A stretch of 64,000 bases of DNA from an uncultured Verrucomicrobiota bacterium. Lineage in GTDB: Bacteria; Auribacterota; JABMQX01. The notes under the pieces are model-generated. The model saw only the letters and a list, made by a program, of their open reading frames with translations, was not told where the DNA came from and made no database searches. Below are positions 30,866-39,872 of this stretch, piece by piece; the stretch's first letter is position 1; each line of letters starts with the position of its first letter. Made by a program: the position numbers and the translations under genes. The stretch is from positions 10,499 through 74,498 of the forward strand of contig CAZFAP010000003.1 in assembly GCA_964516325.1 (NCBI GenBank), given 5' to 3'.

Positions 30866-30921
30866 TCGGCGAACCCGTGTCCTGACTCTTTTGCCTATTG
30901 ATTCACAGCAAGGAAAAGACA

Positions 30922-31195
30922 ATGAAAATGTTCCTGGATTCCGCGGACGTTGATGCGATACGGAGAGCGAACGATACAGCGCTGCTGGATGGAGTTACCA
31001 CCAACCCATCTATGGTTGCGCAAACGGTGAAGAAATTCTCCCAACTCATCAAGGAGATTTGCTCTACTGTAACTGGACCGGTGAACGTCGAAGCGATGGG
31101 TTCCACTGCACAGGATCTCATCGAGAATGCACAGCCGCTGGCACGACTCTCCCCCAATATTGTCGTCAAAATCCCAATGACGGTCGAGGGGCTAA
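30922..31195 (+). pseudogene. Transaldolase / fructose-6-phosphate aldolase, N-terminal fragment
   Basis: MFLDSAD, DGVTTNPS, VVKIPMTVEGL; homology stops abruptly after about 91 aa. Confidence 0.8.
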
Positions 31196-31307
31196 CCTGG
31201 ATTATTCATAAACCCCCGGAGCGCGCTGGTTGGAGAGCGGGTAGCAAATGCTTTTGGAGGTTCGCGCTGGGAATAGGGCTGAAAGAGGCTTTTGCGGCTG
31301 AATCCGG
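31196..31307. mobile_element. Possible miniature IS remnant (IS1380-like ends)
   Basis: Begins CCTGGATTATTCATAAAC exactly where transaldolase homology ends; ends GCTGAATCCGG (imperfect inverted repeat) where an unrelated coding fragment begins. Confidence 0.3.
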
Positions 31308-31523
31308 AGACACTGCCCCCTTGCCCCCAATTGGTTTTCAGGCGGGGGGCACGCCAAAACGAAGCGAGCCTACCGTGATACCAAAGATGCTCCAGCTATC
31401 TTGAGCAGAGTTCAGGATGTCGGGAGTCTTCTTTTCTTGGAAAACGGCCGTGAGAACTGTCCGGTGTTCAAGAGCGTTCTTGACTGGGTCGGGCAGAAAA
31501 CAGGGGTTCCGGCATACGAGTAG
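31308..31523 (+). pseudogene. Orphan C-terminal coding fragment (DUF4276-like, tentative)
   Basis: Frame RHCPLAPNWFSGGGHAKTKRAYRDTKDAPAILSRVQD...NCPVFKSVLDWVGQKTGVPAYE* with no start codon. Confidence 0.25.
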
Positions 31524-32694: not shown

Positions 32695-34224
32695 CTATTT
32701 CGCTCCGGAAATTCCCGGCGCGACTCTCTTCCGCCGCGAGATCACCAGCGCAATAACTGCTCCGACGACGAGCAAGGATGCCGCGCCGAGAAGCCCCGTC
32801 AGGTGCTTATGGAACGGGCATTCGAGCCACTGCCAGCTCCCGGGCAAACCTCTCGCGAAAGTCGCCCAGGCGATGACAGCGACGCTGACGATGACGCCGA
32901 CGAGAGCACTTTCATGGCGTGCGCGCCTGACCAGCAAACCGAGCAAGAACAGGCCGAGCATTCCTCCGCCAAATATGGCAGAGATTTGCCACCAGACGTC
33001 GAGAGCAGACTTCGCCTCGATCATCGCCAGGGCGGCTCCGGTGCCCAGAACGCCGAATGCCAAACTGGCCATTCGCAGGGCGCGAAGGCACTGACGATCG
33101 CCCGCTCCCCGACGGAAATAGCGGCGATAGAAGTCGGCGACGGCGACGCTGGCGGAACTGTTCACGCTGGAATCAATCGTGCTCATGGCGGCGGCGAAGA
33201 TCGCGGCGACCAGAAGCCCACGAACGCCCACGGGTAGCTCCGTGACGATGAAGAAGGGGAAAACTCGGTCTGCGCCGCCTGAAGCGCGGAGGCTTGCGGG
33301 CAGGCTGGCAGTGTGGAGTCTGTAATAGGCGAAAAGGGCTGTGCCGATGAAGAGAAAAATGGCGGACACGGGGACATACGTCAGCCCGCCGAGCCAGAGG
33401 GCTTTCCTCGCCTCTCTGTCGGACTTCGCGGCCAGATACCGCTGAATATAGTTCTGATCCACGCCGAAGTTCTTGAGATTCTCGACGATGCCGTAGATGA
33501 AGATGACCCAGAATGTCGGGAGCGCGAGATTGAGAGACCAACCGGCAAGGCCAAATTTATTCTCCGCGCGACCGACGGAAAAGATTCGGCCCAGTCCTCC
33601 TGGCATCCTGAACACCAGAATCGCGGCGCAGGCGAGCGCGCCGCCGAGCAGAATGAAAACCTGAACCACATCCGTCCAAACGACTCCTTCGATTCCGCCC
33701 AGGACGGTATAGATTGTCGTCGCGATGCCGAGAACCACGATGATGAAGACGAGGTCAACGCCGATGAATTCGGAGAAAGCGACAGCCAGGTAATAGAGCA
33801 CTGTCCCGACGCGGCCGAGTTGAAGGAGGACGAAGCTCAGTGCTGCGTAGGACCTCGCCCAGGGGCGGAAACGCTCCTCGAGGTACTCGTAGGCGGATAT
33901 CCTCAGCTTTCGGCGATAAAGAGGGATGAAGGAGACAGACGCGACGACGCAGATGATGGGGATTGTCAGGCTGAAAACGAACCGGCTCCAGTCGGATTTG
34001 TACGCATCGCCCGCGTAAGCGAGGAAGGTGATGCTGCTCAGGTAGGTGCCCAGGACGGATAGACCGAGCGCCCAACCGGGCATGGAGCGGCTGCCGACGG
34101 CAAACCCCTCCACCGTCCGGCTCCTTTTGAGAAAATAGCACCCGTACGCGACTATCCCGACCACATAAGCCCCGACCACGAGCTGGTCAGGCAACAGAAG
34201 TCTGTGGGATGCTGGACTTGTCAT
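32695..34224 (-). CDS. Sodium:solute symporter (SSS family)
   Basis: GTYLSSITFLAYAG, YEYLEERF, GGIEGVVWTDVVQ, DQNYIQRYLAAK, AAAMSTIDS. Confidence 0.92.
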   Translation of the reverse strand: MTSPASHRLLLPDQLVVGAYVVGIVAYGCYFLKRSRTVEGFAVGSRSMPGWALGLSVLGTYLSSITFLAYAGDAYKSDWSRFVFSLTIPIICVVASVSFIPLYRRKLRISAYEYLEERFRPWARSYAALSFVLLQLGRVGTVLYYLAVAFSEFIGVDLVFIIVVLGIATTIYTVLGGIEGVVWTDVVQVFILLGGALACAAILVFRMPGGLGRIFSVGRAENKFGLAGWSLNLALPTFWVIFIYGIVENLKNFGVDQNYIQRYLAAKSDREARKALWLGGLTYVPVSAIFLFIGTALFAYYRLHTASLPASLRASGGADRVFPFFIVTELPVGVRGLLVAAIFAAAMSTIDSSVNSSASVAVADFYRRYFRRGAGDRQCLRALRMASLAFGVLGTGAALAMIEAKSALDVWWQISAIFGGGMLGLFLLGLLVRRARHESALVGVIVSVAVIAWATFARGLPGSWQWLECPFHKHLTGLLGAASLLVVGAVIALVISRRKRVAPGISGAK

Positions 34225-34231
34225 CAGACGC

Positions 34232-34654
34232 TCAGTCCCTGAGGAAATAGGCGGCCTTGGAGTCGAAAGCGACGGCGAACTCCGTTACCATATCCGCTCT
34301 ACCGAGGAGCCGTGAGGAAGTGCCGCGAGAGAAGCCAACGACAACTGGGAAACGGACGTCAATCCCGGGGACAAAAGCGAGGAGACAGTGAAAGTATGCT
34401 CCAACCTTGCCATCGCATGCGGTTCCAAGTTCGGCGAAGACCCCAGAGGTGACATCGCAGATGCCTAAACCGCCAGCGTCGCCTTCGGGCATCAACGTAT
34501 CATCGGCTCCAGTATCGGCGAGCATGATGAAGGGCTGCCAGGTTCCGTGGCCCGGTGACATAAACACGGGGACCATCGGCCTGCCTTGACCGTCAACGGG
34601 GAATCGCGCGCAAAACGTGTAGAAGTGTCCGTTTTGGAAGAAGGTCTGCCCCAT
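34232..34654 (-). CDS. Single-domain retropepsin-like (clan AA) aspartyl protease
   Basis: MLADTGADDTLMP catalytic DTG and C-terminal LLGRADM psi-loop motif; 140 aa, no signal peptide. Confidence 0.75.
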   Translation of the reverse strand: MGQTFFQNGHFYTFCARFPVDGQGRPMVPVFMSPGHGTWQPFIMLADTGADDTLMPEGDAGGLGICDVTSGVFAELGTACDGKVGAYFHCLLAFVPGIDVRFPVVVGFSRGTSSRLLGRADMVTEFAVAFDSKAAYFLRD

Positions 34655-34660
34655 CGAGGT

Positions 34661-35302
34661 TCACCTCTTGGCCGAGAAGTTTCTGATAACCTGTTCGCGA
34701 ATCATTCCTATCCGGCTCCGCGCATCCCTGGCGGGAATGGAAACTATCATGGGATTTTGCTTTGGGAACGCGTCCGCCAGGTTCTTGCGCAGTTCCTGCT
34801 CCGTAGGCGCCTCCGCGACCACCTCCTGGTCGAGCACTGCGATATACTTCCCCGCGTATTTCTCCAAAAGCATGGGCAGATTGTTGCTAACCCACAGGGC
34901 GTTGAGGTCCGGCTTCGGCCGAGCCCTTTCTTCGAGACCTTGGCGGATGGATCTCAGAAGTCTATCGTACGGATCTCCCTTGGTCTTGTCTATGTAATCG
35001 TATGCGCCAGCCCTCATGAGTTCCGCGCAGGTCTCGATAGAGGCATGGGCGGTTATCACTACGGTTGTGGTGGATTTGGCCGTGAACCATCTGACGATGT
35101 CGGCCCCGGCCCCCTCTCCTTCGGGGAGCCACAGGTCCACGACGATTACATCGAACCTTTTCTGCTTTTCGATCTCGGTCTTTGCCGCGTCGAGAGACTC
35201 AGCCACATATACCTCGTAGGTTCCCTCGCGTTCGAGCGCCTTCCGCATTCCCTCGCGTGCGGGCTCCTCGTCATCAACTATGAGAACCTTGAATTTCGCC
35301 AT
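34661..35302 (-). CDS. Response regulator: receiver domain + DUF5678-like C-terminal domain
   Basis: VLIVDDE, phospho-acceptor VVDLWLP, ITAH, YIDK; C-terminal WVSNNLPMLLEKYAGKYIAVLDQEVVAEAPTEQEL. Confidence 0.8.
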   Translation of the reverse strand: MAKFKVLIVDDEEPAREGMRKALEREGTYEVYVAESLDAAKTEIEKQKRFDVIVVDLWLPEGEGAGADIVRWFTAKSTTTVVITAHASIETCAELMRAGAYDYIDKTKGDPYDRLLRSIRQGLEERARPKPDLNALWVSNNLPMLLEKYAGKYIAVLDQEVVAEAPTEQELRKNLADAFPKQNPMIVSIPARDARSRIGMIREQVIRNFSAKR

Positions 35303-37259
35303 CAGAATCGCCTCCTTTCATCGGAAGGAAAATCTCGAACCTTGCTCCTTTTCCATAAGTGCCCACTTCTCGGACGACCCCGCCGTGAGCCTCGACCGTT
35401 CTGCGGACTATGGATAGACCCAGCCCCGTGCCTCCAATGGTCGTCGAAAAAAAAGGCTCGAAGATGCGCTGCGCGTGCTCCGGCTTGATTCCAGGCCCAT
35501 TGTCTTCCACCGAAAGAACCACGTATTGTCTGTTATTGCGTTGCGGGAGGAGCTGCGCGGGAACTTCGGTCGCGCTCCTAACCGCCAGCCTTATTGTACC
35601 GCGCCCTTTCAAAGCCCTCGTGGCATTTATGAGAAGCTCTTCAACCGCTTCCCCTATCAGTTGCGCGTCGGCGACAATCGTTGTCTCCCCGGGAGGGAGG
35701 TCGCACTCGAGGGTTATCGTTTTCAGCTCATCGCCCACTCGCCTGGCGGCTCTGTGCATCACGTCGCATGGATCGCAGGGCTGAGGGTTCAATCTCAAAG
35801 GCGAGACAAACCTTTTGAACTCGCCGAGGACGGCCTCCGTTCTCTCGACGCATTCGGTGATGGTTTTTAGTTCTTCCCTGCCCTCACCGGGAAGTTTCAT
35901 GAAAGATAACTCCCGGAGCGCCCCTCGTATCCCGAAAGTCAGATTCCCTATCCTGTGAGCGGACCGGGCCGTCAGGGCCTCCCACGCTTCCAGCCTAGCG
36001 CGGCATATCTCCTCCTGCCTTCGCTCCTCTGCTCGCCGGCGTTCCTCTTCAGCAGCCTCACTGGCAACCTTGGCCGGCGCCTCCAGGAACCATCTGAACA
36101 ACCGGGCCGCAAAGTTATCTGGCTCCACCTCCAGAGAAGCCCTTATGGCTTCGAGAGCGTGTTCTCCGTCGGCGAGTGCGTGAAGCGAGAACGCCTTCCC
36201 CCGAAGCGAACTGGCATCTCGTGCGTTGACGGCCAGTGCCCTGTTGAACGACTCGATGGCCTCCTGGTGCTTCCCGAGGTAGCTCAGCGCGACGCCCTTT
36301 CCCCGGAGCGAGTGGTAATCGTCCGGCTTGGCGGCCAGTGCCTTGTCAAACCATTCAATCGCTTCGTGGTGTCGGCGGAGGTTGCCGAGGGCGACGCCCC
36401 TGCCCCGAAGCGAGTCGTAGTCGTTGGGGTTAACGGCCAGAGCCTTGTCAAACCATTCGATGGCTTCCTGGTATCGGCCCAGGTGCCCGAGGGCGACGCC
36501 CCTGCCCCGAAGCGAGTCGTAGTCGTTCGGGTTGACGGATAGAGCCTTGTCATACCATTCGATGGCTTCCTGGCGTCGGCCGAGGTTGCCGAGGGCGCTG
36601 CCCCTGTCCCGAAGCGAGTGGTAGTCCTTCGGGTTGAGTGATAGAGCCTTGTCGAACCATTCGATGGCTTCTTCGTGTCGGCCGAGGTGGCCCAGGGCGA
36701 CGCCCCTGTCCCGAAGCGAGTGGTAGTCGTTCGGGTTGACGGATAGAGCCTTGTCAAACCATTCGATCGCTTCCTGGTGTCGGCCGAGGTTGCCGAGGGC
36801 CCCGCCCCTTTCCCGAAGCGAGTGGTAGTCCTTCGGGTTGACTGACAGAGCCCTGTCCATCCATCCGATCGCCTCCTCGTATCGGCCGAGGTAGCCGAGG
36901 GCCACGCCCCTGTCCCGAAGCGAGTCGTAGTCGTTCGGGTTGACTGATAGAGCCTTGTCAAACCACTCGATGGCTTCCTGGTATCGGCCGAGGTTGCTGA
37001 GCGCCACTCCGCGAGACCTTGCGAAGAGAGGCCTTTCGGGAGCCAGGGACAGGGCCGCGTCGTAATGATCAAGGGCGGACTCGTAATGGCCTGCAAGACA
37101 GTCCAGTTCCGCAAGAAGGAAGTCCTCAAAGGCTCGGTCGCCGCCCTGCCTCGCCGCGGCGAGGCCCGTCTCCAGAAGTTCCCGAGCAGTTTGCTCCTCT
37201 CCCCGGGAAGCAGCTTCATCGGCTTGTCGGCTGAGTTCCTCGTACTCGGGTTCCGTCAT
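35274..37259 (-). CDS. Cytoplasmic TPR-repeat sensor histidine kinase
   Basis: About ten TPRs, coiled coil, H-box SAHRIGN, N-box EELLINA, VEDNGPGI, IFEPFFST, GGTGLGLSIV; no TM segment. Confidence 0.9.
   Translation of the reverse strand: MTEPEYEELSRQADEAASRGEEQTARELLETGLAAARQGGDRAFEDFLLAELDCLAGHYESALDHYDAALSLAPERPLFARSRGVALSNLGRYQEAIEWFDKALSVNPNDYDSLRDRGVALGYLGRYEEAIGWMDRALSVNPKDYHSLRERGGALGNLGRHQEAIEWFDKALSVNPNDYHSLRDRGVALGHLGRHEEAIEWFDKALSLNPKDYHSLRDRGSALGNLGRRQEAIEWYDKALSVNPNDYDSLRGRGVALGHLGRYQEAIEWFDKALAVNPNDYDSLRGRGVALGNLRRHHEAIEWFDKALAAKPDDYHSLRGKGVALSYLGKHQEAIESFNRALAVNARDASSLRGKAFSLHALADGEHALEAIRASLEVEPDNFAARLFRWFLEAPAKVASEAAEEERRRAEERRQEEICRARLEAWEALTARSAHRIGNLTFGIRGALRELSFMKLPGEGREELKTITECVERTEAVLGEFKRFVSPLRLNPQPCDPCDVMHRAARRVGDELKTITLECDLPPGETTIVADAQLIGEAVEELLINATRALKGRGTIRLAVRSATEVPAQLLPQRNNRQYVVLSVEDNGPGIKPEHAQRIFEPFFSTTIGGTGLGLSIVRRTVEAHGGVVREVGTYGKGARFEIFLPMKGGDSDGEIQGSHS
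36200..37060. repeat. 102-bp tandem repeat array (TPR-encoding)
   Basis: Anchor AG(A/T/G)GCC recurs at 36235, 36337, 36439, 36541, 36643, 36745, 36847, 36949, 37051; the central units are nearly identical in DNA. Confidence 0.92.
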
Positions 37260-37448
37260 TGTCGCCGGCTCTCCTTGTCGGCGCCTCGTCCCGCTGGGGG
37301 ACCTTTCCGGGCCATGGGCCCAACACGCAAGCTTTTGTCTTCTCGGTGTGGTCTTCCGATTGTATCATCATTCCGCGCAGGCTTCGAGCATGAGAGGTCC
37401 CATGAAGCCAGCGATTATCTACGACCAATTATAGCGTGTGGCTCAGGC

Positions 37449-39872
37449 ATGGCAATAACAATTGATGACAAGCGAAAGGTGATTCGCCTCAGCGTCAAGG
37501 ACCTTGTCTCTCCGAGCACTGTCCTGGGCTCCATTGTCGCCACGGAGCTTCTCCCGGCCCGCGCTTCTCTCGGGAGGGACGCGCACAAGGACCACCAAAC
37601 CGAGAGAGAAGAATCTCTCGCCTCCTATAGAAAAGAAGTGTATGTCAAGCACGAGATGAAGGTGGACAATTACACGGCTGTCGTGCAGGGCCGGATAGAC
37701 GGCGTCTATGAACGTCGGGGGAAGCTGGTTGTCGAAGAGGTCAAGTCGGTTATTTCGACGAAGGAGGTCATCGAGGCGATCAAAGAGGGGCTCTTTGAGA
37801 CGAGCATTTTGCAGGTGCAGGTATATATGCTCCTGCTGGCGAAGGAGACGGGGAAGGAGGTGGACGCTTACCTGGTCTTCGTCGGGCTCGACGATCGCTC
37901 GACGGAGAGGGTGGAAGTTGACTTCGACCCGGAAAGAATACGCCGCCTCGTCGTGGGGAGAGTTCGCGGCATTCTGGAGGAGCACAGAAAAAAGAAACTT
38001 CGCGAGGCTCAACTCCGAAGGACTGCGGAAGCGCTGGTTTTCCCATTCCCCGAGATGAGGAAGTATCAGAAGGAGATGATGGACGCAGTTCAAGAATCGC
38101 TCGAGCGCCGCAAGAATCTCCTCCTCTTGGCTCCCGCCGGAATTGGAAAAACCGTCGCGGCCATCTTCCCTTCTCTCCGGTATGCCCTTGAGAACAAGAT
38201 GAGGATTTTCTTCGTCACGCCGAAGACGACGCAGCAGAAGATCGTCGCGGAGACGCTTCGCATGACCGTTGGGGGGTGGCGGACAGTGTCGTGCATTTGT
38301 TTGCGCGCGAAAGAGAAGATGTGCGCCAACGATGTCTTCTATTGTCACCCCGACTTCTGCCCCTTCGCGAGGAACTACTACGACAGGCTTGGGTTGTCGT
38401 CTGCCGTCCAGGACCTCCTGGGGAAAGAAGTCATTGAGCCGGAGATGGTCTATGCGAGGGCGGTGGACGAGAGACTTTGTCCGTTCGAGTTATCGCTCGA
38501 CGTCTCCCTCTACGCCTCGGTCGTCGTCTGCGATTACAACTACGTGTTCGACCCCACAGTCTATCTCCGGCGCTTTTTCGCAGAACAGAAATACGACGAC
38601 ATCCTCCTGATAATTGACGAGGCTCACAACCTCTATCCGCGTGGGCGGGACTATTATTCCCCCGAACTGAGGCGCAGCGACATCCGCTCGCTCATGGCGC
38701 GAGCGACGAACTCGCAGGATTCGGTCTTGAGAGAAATTGCCAAGGCGCTTCAGCCTCTGGACAGGCACTTCGCGCGGCTGATGAAGGAAGGCAAAGAGCG
38801 GTTTGAAGGGGCGACGAAATTTCCGGTCGAGATAGATTTCTCTTTCTTCGACGAGGAAAAGGGGAGGATCGAGTCGGTCATGCTGCGCTATTTCTTGCAC
38901 AAGAAGACGCAACGCCTTTCCGCCCCGGACGATCCCTTTGAGCGATTCTACCACGACTTCAATTCGTTCTATGAAGTGCTCCAGCTTAAGGGCGAGGAGT
39001 TCTCGTACCTCTACGACGGCGAAGGCGAGAGTGAAGTGCTAAAAATACTGTGCAAGGACCCGTCGCGTTTCCTCGCGGAGCGAATCAGCGGCTTCCACGC
39101 TACTGTCGCCATGTCGGCAACTCTGGTGCCGCCGGAATTCTTCCGGGACGTCCTCGGCTTCGATAAGGATGCAACCCGCCTCGTCTCATTTCCTTCGCCG
39201 TTTCCGCCGGAGAACAGGAAGATCATCGTCGTGCCAGGCTTGTGGACGACCTACCGAATGCGGCGCCGTTCCTACGAGCAGACCGCTCGCACGATTGAGG
39301 AAATCGTCTCGGTCAAGAAAGGCAACTACTTCGTTTTCTTCCCGAGCTTCGAGTACCTGGACGCGGTCGGACAGTATGTCTCTCCGTCCGGTTTCGTGGT
39401 GCTGCGGCAGGAGCGAGCGATGTCCGAGAGGGAGAGGTCTGATTTGCTGAGGAAACTCACGGAAGGCGGGCAAAGCTATCTCGTGCTTGCGGTGCAGGGA
39501 GGCATCTTCGCGGAAGGCGTTGACTATCCGGGCGAGATGCTGATCGGCGCGATTATCGTCGGGCCGGGCTTGCCGAAGTACAGTTTTGAGCAGGAGTTGA
39601 TGCGAGAGTACTTTCAGGAGCAATACGGAGCGGGTTTCGAGTATGCGTATCTTTATCCGGGCATGAACAGGGTTGTGCAATCGGCGGGGAGAGTCATCCG
39701 CACGGAGAACGACCGCGGAATCATCGCGCTGTTAGGTGAGCGCTTCGCCCGCGCGGAGTATCATTCGCTCTTCCCGAGAGACTGGTACGTCTATTCGCCG
39801 ACGGAGCTAATTGCCAAAGACTATGCCGAGCAGATTCGGCAGTTCTGGGCCGAGAACGGTCAGGATCAATGA
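37449..39872 (+). CDS. DinG/XPD (Rad3-like) Fe-S DNA helicase with N-terminal PD-(D/E)XK nuclease domain
   Basis: QGRIDGVY...VEEVKS nuclease motif; Q-motif RKYQ, APAGIGKT, Cys cluster CAND..CHPDFCPF..LCPF, IIDEAHNL, MSATL, GIFAEGVD, VVQSAGRVIR. Confidence 0.88.
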   Translation: MAITIDDKRKVIRLSVKDLVSPSTVLGSIVATELLPARASLGRDAHKDHQTEREESLASYRKEVYVKHEMKVDNYTAVVQGRIDGVYERRGKLVVEEVKSVISTKEVIEAIKEGLFETSILQVQVYMLLLAKETGKEVDAYLVFVGLDDRSTERVEVDFDPERIRRLVVGRVRGILEEHRKKKLREAQLRRTAEALVFPFPEMRKYQKEMMDAVQESLERRKNLLLLAPAGIGKTVAAIFPSLRYALENKMRIFFVTPKTTQQKIVAETLRMTVGGWRTVSCICLRAKEKMCANDVFYCHPDFCPFARNYYDRLGLSSAVQDLLGKEVIEPEMVYARAVDERLCPFELSLDVSLYASVVVCDYNYVFDPTVYLRRFFAEQKYDDILLIIDEAHNLYPRGRDYYSPELRRSDIRSLMARATNSQDSVLREIAKALQPLDRHFARLMKEGKERFEGATKFPVEIDFSFFDEEKGRIESVMLRYFLHKKTQRLSAPDDPFERFYHDFNSFYEVLQLKGEEFSYLYDGEGESEVLKILCKDPSRFLAERISGFHATVAMSATLVPPEFFRDVLGFDKDATRLVSFPSPFPPENRKIIVVPGLWTTYRMRRRSYEQTARTIEEIVSVKKGNYFVFFPSFEYLDAVGQYVSPSGFVVLRQERAMSERERSDLLRKLTEGGQSYLVLAVQGGIFAEGVDYPGEMLIGAIIVGPGLPKYSFEQELMREYFQEQYGAGFEYAYLYPGMNRVVQSAGRVIRTENDRGIIALLGERFARAEYHSLFPRDWYVYSPTELIAKDYAEQIRQFWAENGQDQ

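Follow-up and report, generated by a model that had tools for sequence, protein, structure and literature searches.

What could a two-component pathway control when its response regulator has no DNA-binding output and a small protease is encoded directly behind it? This question is raised by a minus-strand locus at positions 34232-37259 of a 64,000-nt stretch of DNA (hereafter the window) from an uncultured Verrucomicrobiota bacterium (GTDB lineage Bacteria; Auribacterota; JABMQX01; assembly GCA_964516325.1, contig CAZFAP010000003.1, positions 10,499 to 74,498 of the forward strand). The locus comprises genes for a soluble sensor histidine kinase with tetratricopeptide repeats (TPRs), a response regulator in which a receiver domain (REC) is joined to DUF5678, and a cytoplasmic retropepsin-like aspartic protease. 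The original prediction, made from the sequence without database searches, had proposed that a DUF5678-protease pair has here been wired to a two-component pathway. We consider it moderately probable that this cassette is a phosphorylation-controlled protease switch that operates via DUF5678, likely as a conflict/defence or stress growth-arrest module. For the defence or conflict role taken by itself, the balance is about even; the narrower proposal of a DUF5678-mediated, phosphorylation-controlled protease switch is somewhat more likely.

Predicted components of the cassette

The regulator gene (34661-35302, minus strand) encodes 213 aa, which are divided into a receiver (aa 6-107), a conserved linker, DUF5678 (aa 145-190, nt 34733-34870) and a tail of 23 aa. 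Pfam assigned the receiver to Response_reg with an E-value of 2.8e-19, and its best NCBIfam matches were NtrX, FixJ and NtrC. Among 13 homologues, D10, D11, D56, T84 and K106 are invariant, D56 (nt 35135-35137) being the phospho-acceptor, so that the phospho-Asp, Thr and Lys are intact as originally described. The protein lacks a DNA-binding output. The C-terminal module, which had been recognised as DUF5678-like by eye, was verified in two ways. First, the match to PF18929 (residues 145-190, E 1.9e-9) reached 37.6 bits against a cut-off of 23.2. Second, a model of the isolated C-terminal region (residues 126-213) gave an alpha-alpha-beta-beta-alpha-beta arrangement with a core pLDDT (predicted local distance difference test) of about 90, and this model matched pandoravirus DUF5678 proteins in BFVD (E 5e-5, TM-score 0.64-0.69). 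Taking pandoravirus and uncultured siphovirus proteins together, the BFVD fold matches had E-values of 5e-5 to 5e-4; the DUF5678 fold is thus common to cellular cassettes and viruses. Nothing significant was found for DUF5678 in the PDB, either by sequence profile or by fold, which leaves no support for reading it as a recognisable fold of antitoxins or DNA-binding proteins.

The third gene (34232-34654, minus strand) encodes a cytoplasmic protein of 140 aa with a D47-T-G-A loop (nt 34505-34516; D47 codon at 34514-34516) and an L-L-G118-R motif. When this single sequence was used, curated models did not recognise it: gag-asp_proteas gave 18.9 bits (E 0.0023) versus a threshold of 28.2, Asp_protease_2 gave 13.4 versus 24.3, and NCBIfam TIGR02281 gave 12 versus 58. 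Likewise, a homology search with the single sequence returned only one relative, and the family was revealed by a profile search, which yielded about 90 clusters of proteins of about 143 aa, including a few named members from Planctomycetota and Brocadiia metagenome-assembled genomes. A profile built from six family members matched the retropepsin (RVP) domain of Ddi1 over its full length (residues 39-135, E 0.0013), with ApRick and HTLV protease as the next matches. The AlphaFold model, based on 53 homologues, reached a pLDDT of 91.7, and Foldseek retrieved Rickettsia APRc as the top PDB hit (5c9f, E 6.7e-6, TM-score 0.69/0.73), followed by HTLV-1 and HIV-1 proteases. D47, G49, G118 and D131 are invariant in the 53 family members, and T48 and A50 are conserved in at least 90% of them. 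Precomputed matches to PF13975/PF13650 are listed for about one third of the family members. Thus the profile check envisaged by the original prediction succeeded for DUF5678 and stayed under the threshold for the lone protease, and the retropepsin-like identity was established by the family profile, the structural model and the invariant D47, G49 and G118. Because the curated Pfam and NCBIfam cut-offs are not reached, the window protein appears to represent a divergent sub-family of retropepsin-like proteases outside the curated families.

The kinase gene (35274-37259, minus strand) encodes a soluble TPR sensor histidine kinase of 661 aa. Pfam reported nine TPR_1 stretches, HATPase_c (aa 531-648, 3.8e-22) and a TPR-S sensor model (8e-13), and NCBIfam aligned the C-terminal half of the protein to kinases of the NtrB/AtoS/ZraS type; HisKA was not among the 25 Pfam families listed for it. 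The Kyte-Doolittle score stays at or below 1.6 in every 19-residue segment, and hence no transmembrane segment was detected. The H-box 'SAHRIGN', which contains His435 (nt 35955-35957), and the N, G1, F and G2 boxes (ELLxNA, DxGPG, IFEPFxST and GGxGLGL, respectively) are conserved in 17 orthologues, in line with the original description of a TPR-rich kinase without membrane segments and with a full set of catalytic boxes. Since D56, T84 and K106 of the regulator, the His and ATP-binding boxes of the kinase, and D47, G49 and G118 of the protease are all conserved, the sequences indicate that the three window proteins are probably active.

Within the kinase gene, a 102-bp tandem repeat (36225-37001, minus strand; 7.6 copies, 84% matches) encodes TPR units of 34 aa. 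Eight of these units are near-identical, with 'AIEWFDKALSVNP' recurring every 34 aa. In the orthologous kinase of a locus of the same clade surveyed below (L001), no tandem repeat was detected at the DNA level, and the product as called has 729 aa versus 661 aa in the window. The pattern suggests that the sensor repeats of the window kinase have recently been amplified or homogenised.

The three genes are as tightly coupled as first claimed. The start of the regulator gene overlaps the stop of the kinase gene by 29 nt, and only 6 nt separate the regulator stop from the protease start, the two genes being in the same reading frame. A Shine-Dalgarno-like sequence for the protease, AGAGGTGA, sits within the final codons of the regulator gene. 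Upstream, a promoter-like site (TTGCCA-16-TATAAT; 37428-37455, minus strand), which is a consensus match only (11 of 12 positions), lies about 170 nt 5' of the kinase start.

Conservation of the kinase-regulator-protease linkage

To survey the loci, genomic contexts were gathered from a protein index, a genome collection and a metagenome collection. All open reading frames (ORFs) in them were scored with purpose-built hidden Markov models of the kinase core, REC, the DUF5678 region and the protease, after which duplicates were removed. A total of 33 distinct protease sequences were obtained, of which 28 belong to the REC-associated clade and have usable upstream DNA. A REC-DUF5678 gene stands immediately 5' of the protease gene in 27 of these 28 loci, the single exception being L032, where repeat-like DNA and no regulator lies upstream. 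Homologues with the REC-DUF5678 architecture of the window regulator exist. The two genes share a 4-nt ATGA overlap in 24 of the 27 loci and a 1-nt overlap in the other 3; short gaps occur only in the clade of the window. From the sequences, the ATGA overlap implies translational coupling of regulator and protease. The conserved regulator tail 'SIPDxxVEAIE' was considered as a possible pseudo-substrate and set aside, as it coincides with the GGAGG and ATGA signals of the protease gene.

A histidine kinase gene precedes the regulator in nearly every locus for which enough upstream sequence is available. These kinases usually carry about 2 to about 11 TPRs, and none are present in those of L046 and L047. 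In L001, which encodes a regulator 65% identical to that of the window, the order is syntenic (kinase, regulator, a 142-aa gene, symporter and BNR gene). In L005, where the regulator is 35% identical, the cassette, with a TPR kinase of 475 aa and a protease of 143 aa, lies between rpsI/rplM and ABC-transporter genes. Elsewhere, the flanking genes are also unrelated between lineages and encode, among others, ribosomal proteins, ABC transporters, hydrogenases, methyltransferases and STAS-kinases. Because the flanks differ by lineage, the conserved unit is the kinase-regulator-protease set, and the linkage proposed from a single genome holds across unrelated neighbourhoods. Moreover, pairwise distances of the kinase core, the regulator and the protease are correlated (r = 0.92-0.94), as would be the case if the three genes were inherited as a unit.

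The cassette is rare. With the search patterns used, it was found in 4 of 185,579 species representatives; all four are metagenome-assembled genomes, mostly of Planctomycetota. A scan of viral contigs for the protease family found nothing and thus gave no sign of phage carriage.

One further arrangement was observed in L016 (5001-7069; also in L017), in which the protease is lengthened to 171 aa and the start of the next gene directly adjoins its stop; that gene encodes 517 aa for which neither Pfam nor PADLOC gave a match. Genes for a type II DNA methyltransferase (PADLOC 4e-104) and a putative restriction enzyme lie divergently upstream, and the kinase of this locus is called as only 133 aa.

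DUF5678-protease pairs that lack a receiver

The original prediction stated that stand-alone DUF5678 genes often sit directly upstream of such proteases, and this arrangement was indeed observed. The three most distant protease relatives, all of which were checked, each lie directly 3' of a DUF5678 gene without REC, at a distance of 3 nt. Stand-alone DUF5678 proteins are encoded in L018 (2419-2826, 135 aa, Pfam 4e-10), in L020 (3542-3997, 151 aa, Pfam 0.015) and in L059 (1106-1378, 90 aa, with a precomputed DUF5678 match), and the L059 pair is flanked by genes on the opposite strand. A fourth instance is the second pair of L053 (2881-4357), whose DUF5678 ORF (Pfam 4.5e-8) overlaps a retropepsin-like ORF with DTG and VLG motifs. 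This pair is located 1.4 kb 3' of the REC-DUF5678/protease pair of the same locus, with a gene for a HEAT-repeat protein between them, and is followed by a gene for a TIR_2-domain protein (6.7e-6). In view of these four stand-alone pairs, the link between DUF5678 and the protease is independent of REC. It is likely that a two-gene DUF5678/retropepsin module later gained a receiver domain.

Alternative effectors on the same signalling pair

The regulator alignment was also used as a profile to search 1.84 billion representatives exhaustively, and among the best 150 matches 53 REC-DUF5678 clusters (50% identity) were distinguished. The majority of them (38) are about 200 aa long, like the window regulator, and the others carry additional C-terminal tails. 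In nine, the tails group together; the three members of this group scanned by Pfam carry Schlafen/AlbA_2, the best match being 4.9e-22. The remaining six form a second tail cluster, in which five of the six tails contain a 'VEGxTD' motif, followed in four of these by 'FDxD'. This cluster gave weak OLD-like TOPRIM matches (0.0085-0.048) and weak matches to retron RT-Toprim. The fused REC-DUF5678 regulators include P0198, P0202, P0208, P0220, P0223 and P0241.

One locus of each fused type could be inspected. In L056 (4001-5113), a REC-DUF5678-SLFN_AlbA_2 gene is preceded by a gene for a TPR kinase of 1205 aa, and in L058 (5001-6221), a REC-DUF5678-TOPRIM-like gene is preceded by a gene for a TPR kinase of 973 aa, in both cases with a 4-nt overlap. 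It seems, on sequence grounds, that a single signalling chassis has been combined with three effectors, namely the protease in trans and a Schlafen-like or TOPRIM-like domain in cis. Because the same chassis is joined to three different effectors, DUF5678 looks like the element by which the receiver addresses its effector.

A putative phosphorylation-controlled protease switch

Single-domain retropepsins have an active site that pairs two DTG loops, one from each monomer, and receivers of the NtrX/FixJ/NtrC type commonly dimerise once phosphorylated. Retropepsins with a single domain are obligate homodimers (PMC11957791). In the mechanism that we propose, the TPR array of the cytoplasmic kinase would recognise a ligand inside the cell, in all likelihood a protein or peptide, whereupon the kinase would autophosphorylate at His435 and pass the phosphate to D56 of the regulator. 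DUF5678 would dock to and control the protease encoded immediately 3', and phosphorylation would turn proteolysis on post-translationally. Since retropepsins are active only as homodimers and such receivers usually dimerise when phosphorylated, we prefer a version in which each DUF5678 holds one protease monomer and dimerisation of the phosphorylated receiver assembles the active protease dimer. Within this scheme, the binding of the protease by DUF5678 is an inference, as are the direction in which control is exerted, activation by dimerisation, the nature of the ligand and of the substrates, and a role in defence.

A conflict/defence or growth-arrest role is suggested by the swapping of effectors, the rarity and patchy distribution of the cassette, and its changing neighbourhoods. 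The window kinase also has a sensor of the TPR-S type, and defence or toxin-antitoxin genes adjoin the cassette at some loci, including a type II methyltransferase (L016), a PIN-RHH gene (L012) and a TIR gene (L053). Detocs, compared in more detail below, offers an experimental precedent for defence by a TPR kinase acting on a receiver-effector, TOPRIM (PF20469) effectors included.

Several observations weigh against this interpretation. The association with defence genes is anecdotal, and PADLOC gave no defence-family match for the protease or the DUF5678 part, its only hits being weak REC-only matches to the candidate families PDC-M60B/C and generic TPR matches. Two locus types (L008-type and L053) have no adjacent kinase; the TPR-kinase part of the original prediction, which describes the usual arrangement, does not extend to them or to the TPR-less kinases of L046 and L047. 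Near-identical TPR copies, as found in the window kinase, are unusual for a specific ligand-binding surface. The scanned viral contigs do not contain the cassette. The tail 'VEAIE' of the main clade may be due to the Shine-Dalgarno GGAGG together with the ATGA overlap and not to a contact between proteins, and shared descent explains the mirror-tree correlation equally well. In addition, the cassette is probably co-transcribed with a symporter gene and a BNR sialidase-like gene in the clade of the window, which could mean a metabolic role.

A broader generalisation of the proposed switch can be formulated, which we regard as rather doubtful. According to it, DUF5678 would be a general effector-coupling domain that gates lethal enzymes through a receiver or, in stand-alone form, through an N-terminal sensor, and the cassette would represent a new class of prokaryotic immune or abortive-infection systems, evolutionarily separate from Detocs, in which phosphorylation induces a dimer resembling HIV protease to assemble and the cell is thereby killed or arrested.

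The rival that fares best is a toxin-antitoxin-like arrangement, which we judge to be somewhat improbable. Here, DUF5678 would block an already active, toxic protease dimer, and phosphorylation of REC or degradation of the regulator would free the protease. The stand-alone pairs do have the layout of a type II toxin-antitoxin system, with a small 5' gene, a 3-nt gap and, in L059, flanking genes on the opposite strand, and translational coupling would set the stoichiometry of regulator and protease. Moreover, a C-terminal ELP[FW][GA]GW peptide is present in three of the four stand-alone proteins (L018, L020 and L059). This tail could be a docking or pseudo-substrate peptide, and in a toxin-antitoxin-like model it could fill the substrate cleft. 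However, the REC-fused forms lack this tail, DUF5678 has no sequence or fold similarity to solved antitoxins, and simple release is impossible where DUF5678 and the effector belong to one polypeptide, as in the Schlafen and TOPRIM fusions.

An ordinary adaptive pathway with limited proteolysis of one specific protein of the cell as its output, comparable to RimB or RssB and tied in the window to nutrient uptake via the symporter and the BNR gene product, is an unlikely alternative on our estimate. A Na+/solute symporter of the SSF family (32695-34224, minus strand) starts 7 nt 3' of the protease gene and is not part of the conserved cassette. In both the window and L001, the SSF symporter gene begins 7-8 nt behind the cassette, and the BNR sialidase-like gene comes next. 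From the kinase start to the symporter end, the minus strand contains no terminator-like site, the sole one falling inside the BNR gene, and the window operon probably continues past the protease into the symporter. A housekeeping function would also agree with the existence of cytoplasmic bacterial retropepsin-like enzymes with specific regulatory substrates, such as RimB, and with the absence of defence-model matches for the regulator output domain and the protease. Nevertheless, the companionship with the symporter and BNR genes is confined to the clade of the window. Both genes were considered as parts of the system and rejected; they are not counted as members of the cassette because they are absent beside it in all other lineages. 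Exchange of the protease for Schlafen/AlbA_2 and TOPRIM-like domains of nuclease type, together with a patchy distribution, is typical of conflict systems and argues against a housekeeping role.

Finally, it is highly improbable that there is no functional link to the protease at all, with DUF5678, a domain found in phages and giant viruses too, having a different target such as nucleic acid or some other protein, or with the regulator serving as a protease substrate, and the adjacency being due to operon packing, given that this adjacency is found in 27 of 28 loci across unrelated neighbourhoods, mostly with overlapping stop and start codons, and extends to non-REC DUF5678 paired with more distant proteases.

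Neighbouring genes in the window

Divergently from the kinase gene, a plus-strand gene (37065-39872) encodes a 935-aa protein with an N-terminal PD-(D/E)XK/Cas4-like nuclease and a DinG/XPD-type helicase. PADLOC assigned it to typeIV_DinG (2.5e-116), Pfam detected DEAD_2, HBB and Helicase_C_2, and the gene is syntenic in L001. Further away, the start of an ORF at 30898-31404 (plus strand) resembles what we take, by eye, to be a transaldolase/fructose-6-phosphate aldolase-like protein. The ORF departs from the expected aldolase sequence after about residue 100 ('...VVKIPMTVEGL') and is not continued in any frame; it is probably a truncated gene remnant.

Comparison with known systems

RssB, which acts on RpoS with ClpXP in E. 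coli, and CpdR, which acts with ClpXP in Caulobacter, are receivers that control proteolysis as adaptors. They resemble the scheme proposed for the cassette in that receiver phosphorylation governs proteolysis post-translationally and without DNA binding. However, both deliver substrates to AAA+ proteases encoded elsewhere, whereas the cassette protease is dedicated and co-encoded and would be coupled through DUF5678.

Among enzymes with a similar fold, APRc is membrane-embedded and autotransporter-like, retroviral proteases are cut from polyproteins, and Ddi1 contains UBL and UBA domains. The cassette protease shares with them the fold, the DTG loop, and the hydrophobic-hydrophobic-Gly motif with the helix after it, but in no case is DUF5678 or a two-component system a partner of the enzyme. 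In Pseudomonas fluorescens, RimB, a member of the RimABK system, acts together with RimK (ATP-grasp) and RimA (EAL) and trims polyglutamate from RpsF (PMC11957791). It is likewise a small cytoplasmic bacterial retropepsin-like endopeptidase with operon partners and a signalling input, but RimABK has no kinase, receiver or DUF5678.

The stand-alone pairs recall type II toxin-antitoxin systems in that a small 5' gene is tightly coupled to a potentially harmful enzyme. They differ in that DUF5678 has no recognisable DNA-binding antitoxin fold and, in the cassette, is fused to a receiver. An aspartic-protease toxin family paired with DUF5678 was not found in the literature searched, nor was any description of DUF5678/PF18929 together with a retropepsin, or of a retropepsin-like protease together with a response regulator. 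In the conflict-system papers of the Aravind laboratory that were compared, the DUF5678-retropepsin pairing is unmentioned.

Compared by architecture, the closest described system appears to be Detocs, an anti-phage (abortive-infection) two-component system (Rousset et al. 2023, bioRxiv 10.1101/2023.01.24.525353). Its TPR kinase (DtcA) is accompanied by a buffer protein made of a receiver alone (DtcB) and by a receiver fused to an effector (DtcC). The DtcC effector is a PNP in 80% of cases and otherwise a restriction endonuclease, a TOPRIM domain (PF20469) or a transmembrane hydrolase, and defence requires the His of the kinase as well as the Asp of the receiver and an intact effector site (10.1101/2023.01.24.525353). 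The cassette resembles Detocs in its kinase with N-terminal TPRs, as in DtcA, and in its regulator, which has an effector output in place of DNA binding; its effectors are also swappable and include TOPRIM-like tails on relatives. It differs from Detocs in several respects. There is no DtcB, the regulator being the only REC match in the 64-kb window, and no second REC ORF was found near the cassette in any surveyed locus. The effector of the window is a separate polypeptide, although the Schlafen/AlbA_2 and TOPRIM-like fusions do share the fused form of DtcC; the loci of these fusions look like two-gene, DtcB-less, Detocs-like systems. DUF5678 is placed between the receiver and the effector, and a retropepsin-like protease is not among the effectors reported for Detocs.

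The original statement that no system with this architecture had been described therefore stands for the combination of REC-DUF5678 with a protease and needs to be amended for the logic as a whole, as Detocs is a described TPR-kinase/REC-effector system of the same logic. What is new here is a putative trans-acting retropepsin-like effector, with DUF5678 as the proposed coupling domain, on a Detocs-like non-transcriptional two-component output, as well as the fusion of the same TPR-kinase/REC-DUF5678 pair to Schlafen/AlbA_2 or TOPRIM-like domains. If the proposed switch is correct, it would be the first two-component pathway with a dedicated aspartic protease as its direct output, and DUF5678, which is found across bacteria, phages and giant viruses, would gain a function. 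With its three small soluble proteins and clear point mutants (H435A, D56A or D56E, and D47A), the cassette would offer a tractable system for partner-switched retropepsin dimerisation or activity. It would also extend the principle of Detocs, a phosphorelay as an immune trigger, to a new class of effectors and to effectors that act in trans.

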